DNA of 64,000 nt from a virus (IMGVR_UViG_3300020048_000105:9031-73030), one strand, 5' to 3'. Numbered from the stretch's first letter, positions 3,895-8,245 are shown. Translations and numbers: made by a program. The notes: a model not told the origin generated them from the sequence alone.

Positions 3895-5664
3895 ATGGCA
3901 GGATATTCGCTCAAGAATCTGGACAGGGGACAAACCTCGTTCATTCAAAACATACAACGCAACATTCGTTACCTATCATTAATGGGTATGAAATTCGATC
4001 AGAAAGTGATCAAGCAGTCCAAAGCGATTGGTATCTCCGAAGATCAAGAAGACTCAATGTACAGCCTCTACGGCCAGCACCAGATGGCATCTGGTATGGA
4101 CATTGGCCAGAAAGAATTTATTGCGTTTTTCGACAAAGAATACCCAACTCGTAGAGACTTTCTTAGAAGGTTCGCAATGAACGGTGAGATCGAGCACGTT
4201 CTCGAAGTAATAGCTGATGAAACAATCATATTGGACGATGCAAACTTCTTTGCATACCCAAACACAAGAAAGCTCAAGTCTGTGATAAAAGCAGAGAAAG
4301 CTAAAGAGATCATAGACGACCTTAACGAAGCATTTAAGAAAGTTTACTTCGCATACGGATTCAACAGCGGCCACGACGCATGGCACTACGCAAAGAAGTT
4401 CCTCATCGACGGGTTCCTTGCATTCGAAATCATCTACGACGGTGAGGGCGAAGCAGACGCTAAGAACATCTTAGGCTTCAAAGAGCTTGACCCAATAACT
4501 CTTGAGCCTGAAATGAGAAAAGACGCAGACGACAACGAGTATCGCATCTGGATTCAGTTCAGAGGAGACTCAGAACGCCAGAGAGAGCTAGTAGACGCAA
4601 ACCTCATCTACATCTCATGGGCTCGAGGAAACTTCATATCTCGCCTATCATACGTTGAGAGGCTCGTTCGTTCATTCAACATGCTTCGTACGCTTGAGAA
4701 CTCACGTATCATATGGAACGTTATCAACTCACAGTACAGGATGAAGATCATCGTTCCTATCGGAACTCAATCTGAGGTAAAGGCAAGGACGAGGCTCTCG
4801 GAACTTAGAGGTATGTACAAGGAAGACGTTACTATCGATTACCACTCAGGTGAAGTAACAATCAACGGAACACCTAACTTCTCGTTCGCAAAGCAGTACA
4901 TCATTCCTTCAAAAGATGGCCAACAGACCGAAATCGATTCGGTGGCTCCATCAGGGTATGACCTCACAGGTACCATGGCACTCGATTACTTCTGGAAGCG
5001 TTTCATCATCGAAACTAAAGTTCCTGCAGACAGGTTCTCATCTCAAAGCGGCGAAGCTGGCGGTGGAGGAGAATCAAACTGGTCGACAGGAGGAGATTCA
5101 ATCGCAAGAGAGGAAATTCGTTTCAACTACTTCATCAACAGGATTCGTTCAATACTCCAAGAGATCATACTCAAGCCTACATGGATCCAGTTCTGCTTGA
5201 AATACCCAATGTTCGCACAGGACAAAGCATTAAAAGGAGCAATTGGGCTCGAATTCTGTGAGGAGAACCTCTTCACTGAAGCGAAGAAACGCCAAGTAGA
5301 TTCCAAAGGTGCAGAGATGGTTGAAAAACTCATGGGCATAAAGGAGCCTGACGTTGCTCCTGACGGAACGATAAGTGAAAAACCTTATTTCGATGCCAAG
5401 TTCTTGGTAGAGAAATACATGGACTACACAGACGACGACAACAAACTAAACGTCAAGTACAAGAAAGAAAGAGACGAACAGCTAACAAGGAAGGCAGCCG
5501 CAATGAAGAGAATCGCCACAGCACAAGGCGCAGCAGAAGGCGGTGGAATGGACATGGGAGCAGCAGGAATGGACATGGGAATGGGTGGAGGAGAAATAGG
5601 AGGAGGACCTGAGCCTGAGGGTGGAATGGGAGGTGGAGAAATGGGTGGAGAACTAGGAATGTAA
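3895..5664 (+). CDS. gp20: T4 gp20-like portal protein with Gly/Met-rich C-terminal tail
   Basis: EIEHVLEVIADE, FLIDG.LAFE, SYVERLVRSFNMLRTLENSRIIW, LDYFWKR...KVP..R, I.REEIRF..FI.R.RS motifs. Confidence 0.92.
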   Translation: MAGYSLKNLDRGQTSFIQNIQRNIRYLSLMGMKFDQKVIKQSKAIGISEDQEDSMYSLYGQHQMASGMDIGQKEFIAFFDKEYPTRRDFLRRFAMNGEIEHVLEVIADETIILDDANFFAYPNTRKLKSVIKAEKAKEIIDDLNEAFKKVYFAYGFNSGHDAWHYAKKFLIDGFLAFEIIYDGEGEADAKNILGFKELDPITLEPEMRKDADDNEYRIWIQFRGDSERQRELVDANLIYISWARGNFISRLSYVERLVRSFNMLRTLENSRIIWNVINSQYRMKIIVPIGTQSEVKARTRLSELRGMYKEDVTIDYHSGEVTINGTPNFSFAKQYIIPSKDGQQTEIDSVAPSGYDLTGTMALDYFWKRFIIETKVPADRFSSQSGEAGGGGESNWSTGGDSIAREEIRFNYFINRIRSILQEIILKPTWIQFCLKYPMFAQDKALKGAIGLEFCEENLFTEAKKRQVDSKGAEMVEKLMGIKEPDVAPDGTISEKPYFDAKFLVEKYMDYTDDDNKLNVKYKKERDEQLTRKAAAMKRIATAQGAAEGGGMDMGAAGMDMGMGGGEIGGGPEPEGGMGGGEMGGELGM

Positions 5665-5684
5665 CAAAAATAAAGGATAAAAAC

Positions 5685-6104
5685 TTGGAATACGAAGCAT
5701 TAAAAGTAGCTAGCATTATCGCAAGCTTAATAGCGATATCGATTCTTTATCCTCTCGGAGATTCGATGAAAATTAAATGGTCACAAGAAAGAGAGAGGCA
5801 GGCCTCGCTGTCCGCTACAGAAAGAAACTACAATAAAGCTAAGAAGCTTAGCAACATGTGGCATGCCATAGGATTCTGGATGCGAACTTTCGTGCTGGTG
5901 ATTTTTGTATTCTCAGGAGGACTTCTTTGGGGATTTGTAGGGTTGATTCTCATATCATTTGGTCACAACATCATGATTCAGATAGCGCTGAAACAACCTT
6001 GGTACAAGATAGGAACAACGGCAAAGACAGATATCTTTTTAAGAAAAGTTTGGACTTGGATCGTTACTCAGTATAATAAAATCATCACCAAATTAAAAAA
6101 ATAA
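5685..6104 (+). CDS. Small membrane protein (2-3 predicted TM segments)
   Basis: Hydrophobic stretches VASIIASLIAISILYPL and FVLVIFVFSGGLLWGFVGLILISF; TTG start. Confidence 0.7.
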   Translation: MEYEALKVASIIASLIAISILYPLGDSMKIKWSQERERQASLSATERNYNKAKKLSNMWHAIGFWMRTFVLVIFVFSGGLLWGFVGLILISFGHNIMIQIALKQPWYKIGTTAKTDIFLRKVWTWIVTQYNKIITKLKK

Positions 6105-6146
6105 TTAAAAAAGTGTTAAATATTGTTTTTTCGTATAGAAAAAGAT

Positions 6147-6154
6147 TATATTTG
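6147..6154 (+). promoter_or_regulatory. Bacteroidota housekeeping-sigma promoter -7 box (TAnnTTTG)
   Basis: TATATTTG followed by CA, with TTG about 21 nt upstream; intergenic, ahead of the structured RNA/tmRNA locus. Confidence 0.7.
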
Positions 6155-6165
6155 CATTAAGAAAG

Positions 6166-6244
6166 GTAAACACAATAGTTTCGGCTATTAAAGATAATGA
6201 GCATTCGTTGATAGCATTGGCGGTAGTTCACTTTACAGCATCTC
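6166..6244 (+). ncRNA. Structured RNA segment, probably the 5' part of the tmRNA precursor/acceptor piece
   Basis: UUCG hairpin 6174-6189; hairpin 6198-6230; AGATAA 6192-97 complements TTATCT 7027-32; ATCTC 6240-44 complements GAGAT 7007-11. Pairings found by eye. Confidence 0.45.
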
Positions 6245-6267
6245 CACATGAATATATAAATTAAACT

Positions 6268-7008
6268 ATGTATTCATGTGAAGAATGTAATTTAGAATTT
6301 CAAACATTTCAAGCTAAGGCTAATCATCATAGGTGGCAACATCTAAAATATGCTTATAAAAATGCGGAAATAAAAAATAATACTTCTATCAAATTTTCAT
6401 TAGCGAATGATAGGCGTTTTGGGAGTTTTATTGAAGAAGATGTTATTTGTAGCAAAGAATTGTGTACAAACATAATTCATGTCAAATATAGAGAATCAAA
6501 AAAGAAGGCTAAGTATTTTTGTTCGATCAAATGTAGAAATGCTCACATACATTCTGTTGAAAGTAAAGAAAAATGTAGTAAAGCCGTGGCTAAAGCATGG
6601 AAAGATGGCAAATACGACACTGATTCATTCAACGAAAAACAAAGCACAAATAGAAAATTTTCGTCAAAAATTGAAAGATCAATTACAAAATATTTTAAAG
6701 ATACGTATCCTGCTTATGGATGGAAATCTGGCGGACAACTAATTTTTCAAAATGTCAGAATATCACGAGATTTATATTCAGATATTCTTAAAATTTGTTT
6801 TGAATATGATGGAGTATGGCATTTTAAAGACATCAATGGTCAATTAAAAGAAAAGCGTCAAAAAGACACAATTTTAGAAAATTGGTGTATCGAAAATAAC
6901 TATCGTTTAATTCGTATAGATGAAAATGATTTTAAAGATTTTAAACAAATAGAACAATTGTTCTTTGAAAATACTAATCCTATCATAAAAATAGGAAATC
7001 GATATTGA
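6268..7008 (+). CDS. Homing endonuclease, EDxHD/DUF559 (Vsr-like) family, with N-terminal Zn-binding motifs
   Basis: C-x2-C...H-x4-H and KYFCSIKC; C-terminal SKIE...DLY..ILKICFEYDGVWH...KD...NNYRLIRI; own late promoter at 6250-6261; AT-rich. Confidence 0.8.
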   Translation: MYSCEECNLEFQTFQAKANHHRWQHLKYAYKNAEIKNNTSIKFSLANDRRFGSFIEEDVICSKELCTNIIHVKYRESKKKAKYFCSIKCRNAHIHSVESKEKCSKAVAKAWKDGKYDTDSFNEKQSTNRKFSSKIERSITKYFKDTYPAYGWKSGGQLIFQNVRISRDLYSDILKICFEYDGVWHFKDINGQLKEKRQKDTILENWCIENNYRLIRIDENDFKDFKQIEQLFFENTNPIIKIGNRY

Positions 7009-7012
7009 GATC

Positions 7013-7252
7013 GTTGGGAAACTAACTTATCTATCTGCAATGCAGGTCTGAAACACCCGGGTTCGAGTCCCGGCAGGTCCACTTTTATTAAAATTCTTAG
7101 GGCTTGACATGGAATTGACTTCATATTTGTGCAATAGTGACAAATTTCAATTACAATAAATGCAAACACATTTATGAACACCGAGATGATGATGGCAGCG
7201 TAAGCTCCATCTTAGTCGGCGGAGAGGAGTGGCTGAGGTCGCTACCTCTCCG
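7013..7252 (+). ncRNA. ssrA: Circularly permuted (two-piece) tmRNA
   Basis: Acceptor piece: CAC 7054-56, T-arm CCGGG-TTCGAGT-CCCGG 7057-73, CAGGTCC-A 7074-81. Spacer 7082-99. Coding piece: GGGCTTG 7100-06 pairs with CAGGTCC giving G3.U; D-loop ACATGGAATTGA; helix 2 TTCATATTTG/CAGGTCTGAA and TGCAATAG/CTATCTGCA; resume context ATAAAT-GCA. The 5' boundary of the acceptor piece is uncertain. Confidence 0.92.
7162..7203 (+). other. tmRNA tag reading frame ANTFMNTEMMMAA*
   Basis: GCA resume codon at 7162 after ATAAAT; ends in AA-stop; the stop lies in the GTAA tetraloop of hairpin GATGGCAGC-GTAA-GCTCCATC (helix-5-like). Confidence 0.88.
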
Positions 7253-7264
7253 TAATTTTTTTTT
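7220..7264 (+). terminator. Intrinsic terminator ending the tmRNA coding piece
   Basis: CGGAGAGG-AGTGGC-TGAG-GTCGCT-A-CCTCTCCG followed by 9 T. Confidence 0.88.
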
Positions 7265-7313
7265 GCTAAATCTATCGAAAGATTGAGAATATATACTAAA
7301 AATAATAACGTCT

Positions 7314-7919
7314 ATGAGAGCAGGAAATTTTAATATCAATGACTATCTTGATAAACTATACGAAGCCGCTGAAGAGCAAGAAGCAAAGGAGAACGAAACG
7401 AAGGGAAAGGAAACAAAAGAAGCCGCTTCTGGTGTAAGTGATAGTGAAGGCTTGATTCTCCCAGAGGAAAACAAAAAGACATACAATTGGCTTAAGAAAG
7501 AATACAACGCCGGAAAGACAGAAGTAAAGGTCGAAATGAAAATGGGCGGTGCAAAGTTTGAACCGGGCTATGACCTCCAGACTGACCTCAAGTCCGTTAA
7601 TGACTTCAAGCCGGGAATGTTCGGCGAAGTAAAGACCGTTGACACACCAGGTGCCGACAAAACTAACAGCCCAGGTGCTCCTAACAGTCCCAACCTCACT
7701 TCAAAAGGAGGCAATCCAAATGCTAACACATCCAAACCTGCGCCTGCAAAGCCAGTTACATCACCAGCACCCGCAGGTGGAGCAAAACCTTTCGAAAAAG
7801 GCAAGGCTCCTGAAACTTCTGGAAAGAATCCGAATATAAGCAATAAGGAAGGTGGAGAAAAGGGAGAAGGAGAAAAAACGGAAGTAAAAAAAGTCGATCT
7901 CAAAACTAAGAAGAAATGA
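7314..7919 (+). CDS. Hypothetical low-complexity (Pro/Ala/Gly/Lys-rich) protein, late-promoter driven
   Basis: 201-aa ORF; GAATATATA at 7287-7295. Confidence 0.8.
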   Translation: MRAGNFNINDYLDKLYEAAEEQEAKENETKGKETKEAASGVSDSEGLILPEENKKTYNWLKKEYNAGKTEVKVEMKMGGAKFEPGYDLQTDLKSVNDFKPGMFGEVKTVDTPGADKTNSPGAPNSPNLTSKGGNPNANTSKPAPAKPVTSPAPAGGAKPFEKGKAPETSGKNPNISNKEGGEKGEGEKTEVKKVDLKTKKK

Positions 7920-8245
7920 TAAATGACAACGTGCTAGGCGACAGGCTTAACGCACACCTAAATAAGCCAGCGGAAACACAAACACAAGCTGACACCACAA
8001 AAGATTCTAACATAAAACGACAGTCGGCTTTGCAACTCTTAGCCGACTCGTTTGATGCTATCTGGTCGCTTCTTTCAATATTCGTAACCGCTTTCGTTTT
8101 AGGATTTGCAATCAGGACAATATCAGGCACAGGCTGGACATTCATAGAGTATATGATAATTGGCGTCGCAGTAAACACTGTGATGACATATGTGCATAAC
8201 TTAATACATGGAATGCCAAAGATAAAAATAAATTCAATTAAATGA
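7916..8245 (+). CDS. Small membrane protein
   Basis: Two hydrophobic segments in the C-terminal half; ATGA overlaps at both ends. Confidence 0.75.
   Translation: MINDNVLGDRLNAHLNKPAETQTQADTTKDSNIKRQSALQLLADSFDAIWSLLSIFVTAFVLGFAIRTISGTGWTFIEYMIIGVAVNTVMTYVHNLIHGMPKIKINSIK

Follow-up and report, generated by a model that had tools for sequence, protein, structure and literature searches.

A predicted free-standing homing endonuclease gene that overlaps the 5' end of a two-piece tmRNA in a large T4-like phage

How a 741-nt open reading frame (ORF) can lie directly before the acceptor piece of a two-piece tmRNA, and even share a few bases with the working RNA, is the question raised by a locus in the 64,000-nt stretch of DNA analysed here (the window; positions are counted from its first letter), which belongs to a 73-kb IMG/VR contig from a large T4-like phage. 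Downstream of a T4-type portal gene (3895-5664) the order is: what is most likely a decayed partial tmRNA copy, then the ORF, which we predict to be an endonuclease gene, and then the intact two-piece tmRNA, with an overlap of a few bases between ORF and tmRNA; features from 6123 onwards are all on the + strand. The initial annotation had proposed that the gene sits, without an intron, in a loop of the acceptor piece, with the two flanks of the ORF folding together into one nested junction. The answer depends on where the working RNA begins, on what the DNA between it and its promoter is, and on how related phages arrange the same locus.

The two-piece tmRNA at ~7003-7265 is real and strongly backed by covariation. 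ARAGORN calls one permuted tmRNA (tmRNA*) at 6989-7294, and the Rfam model tmRNA_permuted (RF04321) matches 7036-7203 with 44.5 bits (E = 3e-7) against a gathering score of 47; at the gathering score Rfam reports nothing in the whole window, while close relatives (L070-L072, L089, L107) reach 52-64 bits with this permuted-tmRNA model. We tested a six-helix structure on an alignment of 19 tmRNA genes, in which 90.9% of cells are paired, as compared with 71% in shuffled alignments and ~43% when partners are slid, and 29 of the 38 pairs show changes on both sides. The tRNA-like domain consists of a T-arm (97.9% of cells paired) and a 7-bp acceptor stem (93.2%) with G3:U70, its 3' half being encoded upstream, and the G3:U pair (U:G) is invariant in 19/19 sequences. 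Along the DNA, the acceptor piece at 7036-7082 (found by ARAGORN, Rfam and covariation) contains a P2 strand (7036-7048), the T-arm (7057-7073), the acceptor 3' strand (7074-7080) and the discriminator A (7081). It is followed by a spacer at 7083-7099, defined by ARAGORN, Rfam and the alignment, and by the coding piece at 7100-7215, on which ARAGORN, Rfam and covariation agree and which holds the acceptor 5' strand (7100-7106), the tag reading frame (7162-7203), ending in ...MMMAA*, and a stop-codon hairpin (94.3% paired). A terminator-like hairpin with a T-run, read directly from the sequence, ends the unit at 7220-7264; a simple scan missed this terminator with its long loop, and relatives have a GC hairpin followed by a T-run at the equivalent position. 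An exact-motif scan for the window's T-arm retrieved only an unrelated tRNA cluster (L002).

Two further helices extend the acceptor piece in the 5' direction. Helix 1, the 5'-most, has its 5' strand at 7003-7010 and joins the acceptor piece to the coding piece just before the tag, with 7004-7010 pairing with 7145-7151; 88.7% of its cells are paired across the 19 sequences and five of its eight pairs have changed on both sides. Immediately after it, a small conserved hairpin at 7013-7026 is paired in 93% of cells, and all four of its pairs show changes on both sides (4/4). Judged from this conservation, the working acceptor piece begins at ~7003 and not at 6166, where the proposed junction had started.

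Three sets of relatives were used for comparison: fourteen viral contigs carrying the same locus, with portal proteins 76-84% identical to that of the window; tmRNA loci fetched by a conserved coding-piece motif; and loci with endonuclease homologues, found with the ORF protein and by alignment searches. A single-protein search for such loci returned two weak matches only and it was the alignment-based searches that succeeded, while blastn of 5600-7400 against 50,697 phage records gave no match. In most of the fourteen portal-matched contigs the portal gene is closely followed by a permuted tmRNA, as it is in the alleles fetched by portal or endonuclease identity, and this synteny of portal and tmRNA is common to empty and filled alleles. 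The phage two-piece tmRNA locus thus exists in both states, with at least 11 filled alleles in which a homologous ORF lies directly 5' of the acceptor piece (the window, L028, L029, L030, L035/L006, L036, L037/L020, L046, L071, L072, L107) and at least nine that are free of the endonuclease gene (L004, L005, L007, L009, L010, L011, L012, L016, L025). All empty alleles have one conserved upstream block before the tmRNA. In the window its counterpart is a promoter-like region at 6123-6154, ending in a promoter-like box (6147-6154) that fits the TAnnTTTG type, and window positions 6144-6154 are identical to the stretch directly 5' of the acceptor piece in one empty allele (L004). The leader of the empty alleles ends in ...TTAAGA, and only ~10-15 nt separate the promoter-like box from the acceptor start (L004, L009, L010, L011, L016, L005, L007, L012). 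The window retains a remnant of this leader at 6155-6163, the left junction, where similarity to the empty alleles ends; it resumes only at ~7001, and 6164 to ~7000 is therefore inserted DNA. With an unrelated ORF in L023, an endonuclease remnant in L003 and L015 and a GIY-YIG/NUMOD3 gene in L004 (all described below), the locus is a hot spot of mobile nuclease genes and of tmRNA module exchange.

The inserted ORF (6268-7008) encodes a protein of 246 residues for which 98 homologues were found. A Pfam search with it gave nothing, and PHROGs gave a weak match to an 'HNH endonuclease' family (E = 1e-6), a label which the fold does not support. A profile built from 15 homologues identifies a C2H2 zinc finger at residues 2-25; searched against solved structures, the same profile matched zinc fingers only and did not match I-Bth0305I by sequence. 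The likeness to nucleases lies in the fold. In the AlphaFold model (pLDDT 86), residues 130-246 superpose on Vsr with Z of 11.1 (1cw0_A, rmsd 3.1 Å over 110 residues) and 10.3 (1vsr), and on the catalytic domain of I-Bth0305I with Z of 8.4 (3r3p_B, rmsd 3.5 Å over 93 residues). None of the conserved acidic and histidine residues varies among the 15 homologues. The conserved block reads E-Y-D-G-x-W-H, which we take to be closer to the Vsr motif than to EDxHD; the match to the EDxHD endonucleases is at the level of the fold. With a nuclease domain of the Vsr / I-Bth0305I fold, variable presence among relatives and a position in neither an intron nor an intein, the ORF is, on sequence and model, a free-standing homing endonuclease gene, with DNA cleavage as its predicted activity.

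The start of this gene is embedded in a hairpin. Positions 6241-6254, the last 14 nt of the upstream module described below, pair with 6271-6284, which are codons 2-6 of the ORF, to give a fold of -21.5 kcal/mol (z = -6.66) that none of 200 shuffles equals, and an equivalent start-region hairpin with changed pairs is found in L029, L036 and L037. As predicted from this fold, the hairpin (6241-6284) sequesters the endonuclease start codon. A late-promoter-like motif, RATATATAVA, lies within its 5' arm and loop (6251-6260). The motif occurs 12 times in the window (1304, 3864, 6251, 10715, 22200, 23520, 24422, 30363, 32201, 42556, 51739 and 53337), once just before the portal gene, as compared with 2.0 copies expected, and none of 100 shuffles reaches 12; this enrichment is consistent with a class of phage late promoters. 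In T4, a late promoter placed inside a start-codon-hiding hairpin silences endonuclease genes in early read-through transcripts, and the arrangement predicted here resembles that form of regulation.

What lies between the left junction and the start codon is most likely, on sequence comparison, a decayed earlier copy of the acceptor piece (6164-6246). All filled alleles except L035 share a block of ~45 nt directly before the start codon, composed of a T-loop-like motif, an acceptor 3' strand with CTCCAC or something close to it at its end, and an AT-rich stretch containing the late-promoter-like motif. In the window this block corresponds to 6222-6267, which aligns column for column with L029, L030, L036, L037, L071 and L072, and its T-loop-plus-acceptor-3'-strand module occupies 6222-6246, at the 5' edge of the endonuclease cassette. 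The stretch 5' of the shared block differs in every allele and ranges from ~40 to ~290 nt; in L030 it is the 5' part of an acceptor piece, fused to the block and identical to L004 at 26 of 27 positions (counted by eye). The window copy itself has lost its T-stem, and its acceptor strand fits the coding piece poorly, pairing at no more than 5 of 7 positions, as read from the sequence. When 6100-6267 was locally aligned with each of ten full acceptor pieces, no score reached significance (z <= 1.9), and the relic reading therefore rests on the other filled alleles and on L030.

At its other end, the ORF runs into the tmRNA. Its stop codon (7006-7008) lies inside helix 1, the first covarying helix of the RNA, so that the end of the ORF, Arg-Tyr-stop, is at the same time the 5' strand of that helix. 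In L036, L037 and L046 the stop has been lost and the ORF extends 7-10 codons into the acceptor piece, while the helix 1 pairing is kept through compensating changes. A stop codon within a functional tmRNA helix makes a common precursor of mRNA and tmRNA likely, and to this extent the earlier proposal of one RNA that is both an mRNA and half of a tmRNA holds. A scan of 5900-7400 found neither a promoter nor a terminator between ORF and tmRNA, in agreement with the initial annotation, which had noticed no other promoter nearer the T-arm; from this, co-transcription of the endonuclease ORF and the tmRNA is likely. A comparable junction is seen in L023 (6720-6992), where an unrelated 90-aa ORF, probably coding for a membrane protein to judge by its hydrophobic sequence, occupies the interval from the same promoter-like block to the acceptor piece and continues for 22 nt into the tmRNA. 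As this ORF, like that of the window, stops within the acceptor piece, the tmRNA seems to tolerate a long mRNA extension at its 5' side.

The explanation that we propose, and that we regard as probable, is that 6164-7008 is a cassette with a free-standing endonuclease specialised on tmRNA genes, placed between the tmRNA promoter and an intact permuted tmRNA. Its first part would be the decayed acceptor-piece copy, the 3' end of which would owe its survival to its role as 5' strand of the hairpin that masks the endonuclease start codon when transcripts read through; its second part would be the late-promoter-like motif inside that hairpin, and its third the ORF, whose last codons would double as the 5' strand of helix 1. 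Transcripts from the promoter-like box and from the late motif would traverse the ORF, enter the tmRNA and stop at the terminator (7220-7264). Such a transcript would contain the endonuclease mRNA as well as the tmRNA, and the latter would be produced from it, some RNase cutting out the 5' end of the acceptor piece. The enzyme would cleave the endonuclease-free tmRNA loci of co-infecting relatives, with repair copying the gene in. The window arrangement itself is probably derived from a state like that in L038 (described below), in the order acceptor piece, endonuclease gene, coding piece, perhaps by recombination at the 8-10 nt (AAGATATT) that the end of the ORF shares with the start of the acceptor piece.

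Other readings of the same DNA have to be weighed against this one. In the proposed nested junction, 6166-6244 and 7007-7032 would pair across the ORF and so reunite a split acceptor piece. The complementary stretches do exist in the window, as direct reading and a script confirm: AGATAA (6192-97) with TTATCT (7027-32) as the closing stem, ATCTC (6240-44) with GAGAT (7007-11) as arm 2, 7013-17 with 7022-26 as arm 3, and GTAAA (6166-70) with TTTAC (6232-36) as a pseudoknot; the lack of a promoter or terminator between ORF and tmRNA would also suit this reading. Of these pairings only arm 3 is real, being the covarying hairpin of the 19 relatives described above. Folded without the ORF, the flanks give -37.4 kcal/mol, and with a shuffled 5' flank -36.8 ± 3.0 kcal/mol (z = -0.22); the best duplex between 6166-6244 and 7007-7036 is equalled by 6% of shuffles. 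The pairings do not exceed chance, for which the initial annotation had itself allowed. The junction is also not kept in six related endonuclease-bearing alleles. In an alignment of seven filled alleles, counting the window from which the model was drawn, 52% of cells are paired in the pseudoknot, 63% in the closing stem and 60% in arm 2, whereas the real tmRNA helices reach 84-98%; the 5' partner of the closing stem is absent altogether from two of the seven, and several alleles lack a 5' partner for the long-range helices. Arm 2 has in addition a competitor, since 6240-44 falls to a much stronger local partner, with 6241-6254 committed to the start-codon hairpin. The initial annotation had expected 6166-6244 to join 7007 onwards in endonuclease-free alleles, but the segment has no counterpart there, and this, like a lack of covariation, was an outcome that it had named as refuting the model. 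A leader/3'-segment closing stem sought by eye in the empty alleles was likewise inconsistent between L004, L005 and the window, and was discarded. We consider an ORF in a loop of the acceptor piece very improbable. Other parts of that proposal stand: the gene is within the tmRNA transcription unit, and it is intron-free, as no group I intron is found in 6000-7400 at E <= 10 or window-wide at the gathering score.

If the ORF is not in a loop, the acceptor piece might still be supplied from a start site of its own inside the 3' end of the ORF, and no fusion transcript would then be needed. In most filled alleles a -10-like hexamer can be seen by eye 11-20 nt before helix 1, what remains of the endonuclease ORF in L003/L015 is precisely its final ~40 nt, and the scan of 5900-7400 lists a weak promoter match at 6965-6992. 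However, sigma-70-like sites in that region are fewer than in shuffles (3 vs 7.9), the hexamer is degenerate in the window itself, and the same DNA encodes a C-terminal peptide that is found family-wide, also in homologues that are not upstream of a tmRNA; a separate start site therefore seems unlikely to us, if worth keeping in mind. A different doubt concerns the upstream module, since 6222-6246 may be a maintained functional part of the mobile cassette rather than a decaying, passive relic, for example a homology arm matching the conserved 3' end of the tmRNA, or a diverged copy of the target that confers self-immunity. The module is kept even beside intact one-piece tmRNA genes, a similar one preceding the homologues that lie just after such genes (L040, L043, L052, L055, L076), and a T-loop-like motif with an acceptor-like end occurs within 80 nt upstream of the ORF in 9 of 29 loci, vs 1.4% of random 80-nt windows drawn from the same 29 loci. 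Against this, the T-stem is lost, no two alleles have the same sequence 5' of the module, and L035 does without any such module, while the hairpin role for its part accounts for the conservation of only the last ~14 nt. We hold a functional module to be improbable, and retain the cassette with a decayed acceptor-piece copy as the preferred reading.

The tie to tmRNA genes is seen across the whole family. A tmRNA gene, identified by ARAGORN or Rfam, is directly beside the homologue in 56 of 69 loci. The commonest position of the endonuclease gene is just 3' of a one-piece tmRNA gene; some homologues are just 5' of one (L042, L051, L101), and the window type, with the homologue 5' of a two-piece tmRNA gene, is represented at least 11 times. 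In L042 (1255-1985) and L051 (1150-1960), both beside one-piece tmRNA genes, the motif GTTCTTTAA occurs on either side of the endonuclease gene; in L051 a second copy of the tmRNA 5' end, 23 nt long, has also been retained before the ORF. The same motif is the near-invariant leader of the empty two-piece alleles, and it could be a target site or a promoter element.

Group I introns are over-represented in this setting. They interrupt the adjacent tmRNA gene in 14 of the 69 loci (L031, L040, L041, L043, L075, L077, L078, L081, L082, L087, L090, L098 and, on the other strand, L080 and L096), as compared with ~0.9% of database tmRNAs (883 of the 97,179 unique sequences in the current tmRNA database; PMC11915505). 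In L031 and L041 the ORF starts within ~50 nt of the 3' end of the intron, after a 3' exon of ~24-35 nt. This enrichment suggests a partnership of intron and endonuclease, as in cyanophage psbA: the two may home collaboratively, or the intron may serve as protection from the enzyme.

The two-piece arrangement offers yet another position. In a complete phage genome of 188.5 kb with terminal repeats (G001; L032, L038 and L083 are this one contig), the endonuclease gene lies in the spacer of a two-piece tmRNA gene (L038, 1366-2412), in the order acceptor piece, 68-nt spacer, ORF and coding piece, with the last codons of the ORF overlapping the 5' end of the coding piece. Both ARAGORN (even with the ORF removed in silico) and Rfam miss this split tmRNA, which we identified from its T-arm, the G3:U acceptor pairing, the tag and a 5' sequence of the usual type; when the two pieces are cofolded, z is only -1.8, and at the Rfam cut-off the genome contains no other tmRNA candidate. 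The gene in this spacer shows how circular permutation can open a site for insertion without any need for an intron. The earlier suggestion that permutation makes the insertion tolerable has in this phage one real example; in the window the gene is outside the spacer. Split tmRNA genes of this kind escape tmRNA finders, which matters for annotation.

Taken jointly, these observations allow a wider reading, which we offer as possible and somewhat short of an even chance: a Vsr-fold family specialised on tmRNA genes, which harbours in the spacer of two-piece genes, overlaps mRNA and acceptor piece in one transcript, and homes collaboratively beside introns. If it is true, the two-piece spacer is an intron-free safe harbour, intact in the 188-kb L038 genome; a working half-tmRNA must be cut from an overlapping mRNA/acceptor transcript in the window lineage; and beside intron-bearing one-piece tmRNA genes the family may drive collaborative intron homing.

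In T4-like phages the seg and mob genes are free-standing homing endonuclease genes, and collaborative homing is exemplified by F-CphI beside the cyanophage psbA intron; free-standing homing endonucleases are known to act on protein-coding phage genes. The window gene shares with seg, mob and F-CphI the character of a nuclease gene free of intron and intein, located at conserved genes and variably present among close relatives, and the many homologues just after an intron-bearing tmRNA gene recall the F-CphI arrangement. It differs from them in that the neighbour and presumed target is a tmRNA gene, in that the end of the ORF overlaps a functional RNA helix, and in its combination of a Vsr fold with zinc fingers in place of GIY-YIG or HNH. 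With I-Bth0305I and the EDxHD endonucleases it shares the fold of the catalytic domain; however, I-Bth0305I resides in a group I intron in phage recA, whereas the window gene is free-standing and its protein has N-terminal zinc fingers.

Interrupted tmRNA genes have been described before. Group I introns are known in tmRNA T-loops, some of them with LAGLIDADG endonuclease genes, and intervening sequences of permuted tmRNA genes that contain a tRNA or a repeat have been reported (PMC11915505). As in those cases, exemplified here by L038, extra DNA is tolerated because processing removes it, but the endonuclease genes described there are of LAGLIDADG type and inside introns, while the window gene is outside the intervening sequence, 5' of the acceptor piece and overlapping it. 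Two-piece tmRNA genes are also known from aquatic phages (PMC9004378), and the window, with its permuted tmRNA in a large T4-like aquatic phage, resembles these, although no association with an endonuclease is described there. In the literature that we searched, we found neither a family of free-standing endonucleases linked to tmRNA genes nor an ORF that overlaps a tmRNA helix. Such a tmRNA-tied family would add a structured-RNA gene to the targets of homing endonucleases and would explain mosaic loci with duplicated acceptor pieces, swapped tmRNA types and endonuclease remnants, while the stop codon within a covarying tmRNA helix provides a concrete, testable case of one RNA that serves as mRNA and as tmRNA precursor.

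Several smaller observations were made along the way. L003 (8250-8440) and L015, which have the same sequence here, are mosaic, with a truncated acceptor piece, the end of an endonuclease ORF (~40 nt) and a complete tmRNA, in that order; truncated acceptor and complete tmRNA are of different types, and the 15-nt spacer of the complete tmRNA holds a late-promoter-like motif. In L004, which has no Vsr-type gene, a GIY-YIG/NUMOD3 (SegE-like) gene directly follows the tmRNA terminator (7432-7998), and SegE-like or NUMOD3 genes are found just before the portal gene in relatives. The tag of the window (7162-7203) is unusually rich in methionine and ends in MAA, the tags of relatives ending mostly in MAA, LAA or IAA. 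Finally, the two-piece tmRNA of L025 (1245-1614) is part of a tRNA cluster, directly after a tRNA-His gene, and the tRNA-Arg gene that comes after it overlaps the ARAGORN tmRNA call.
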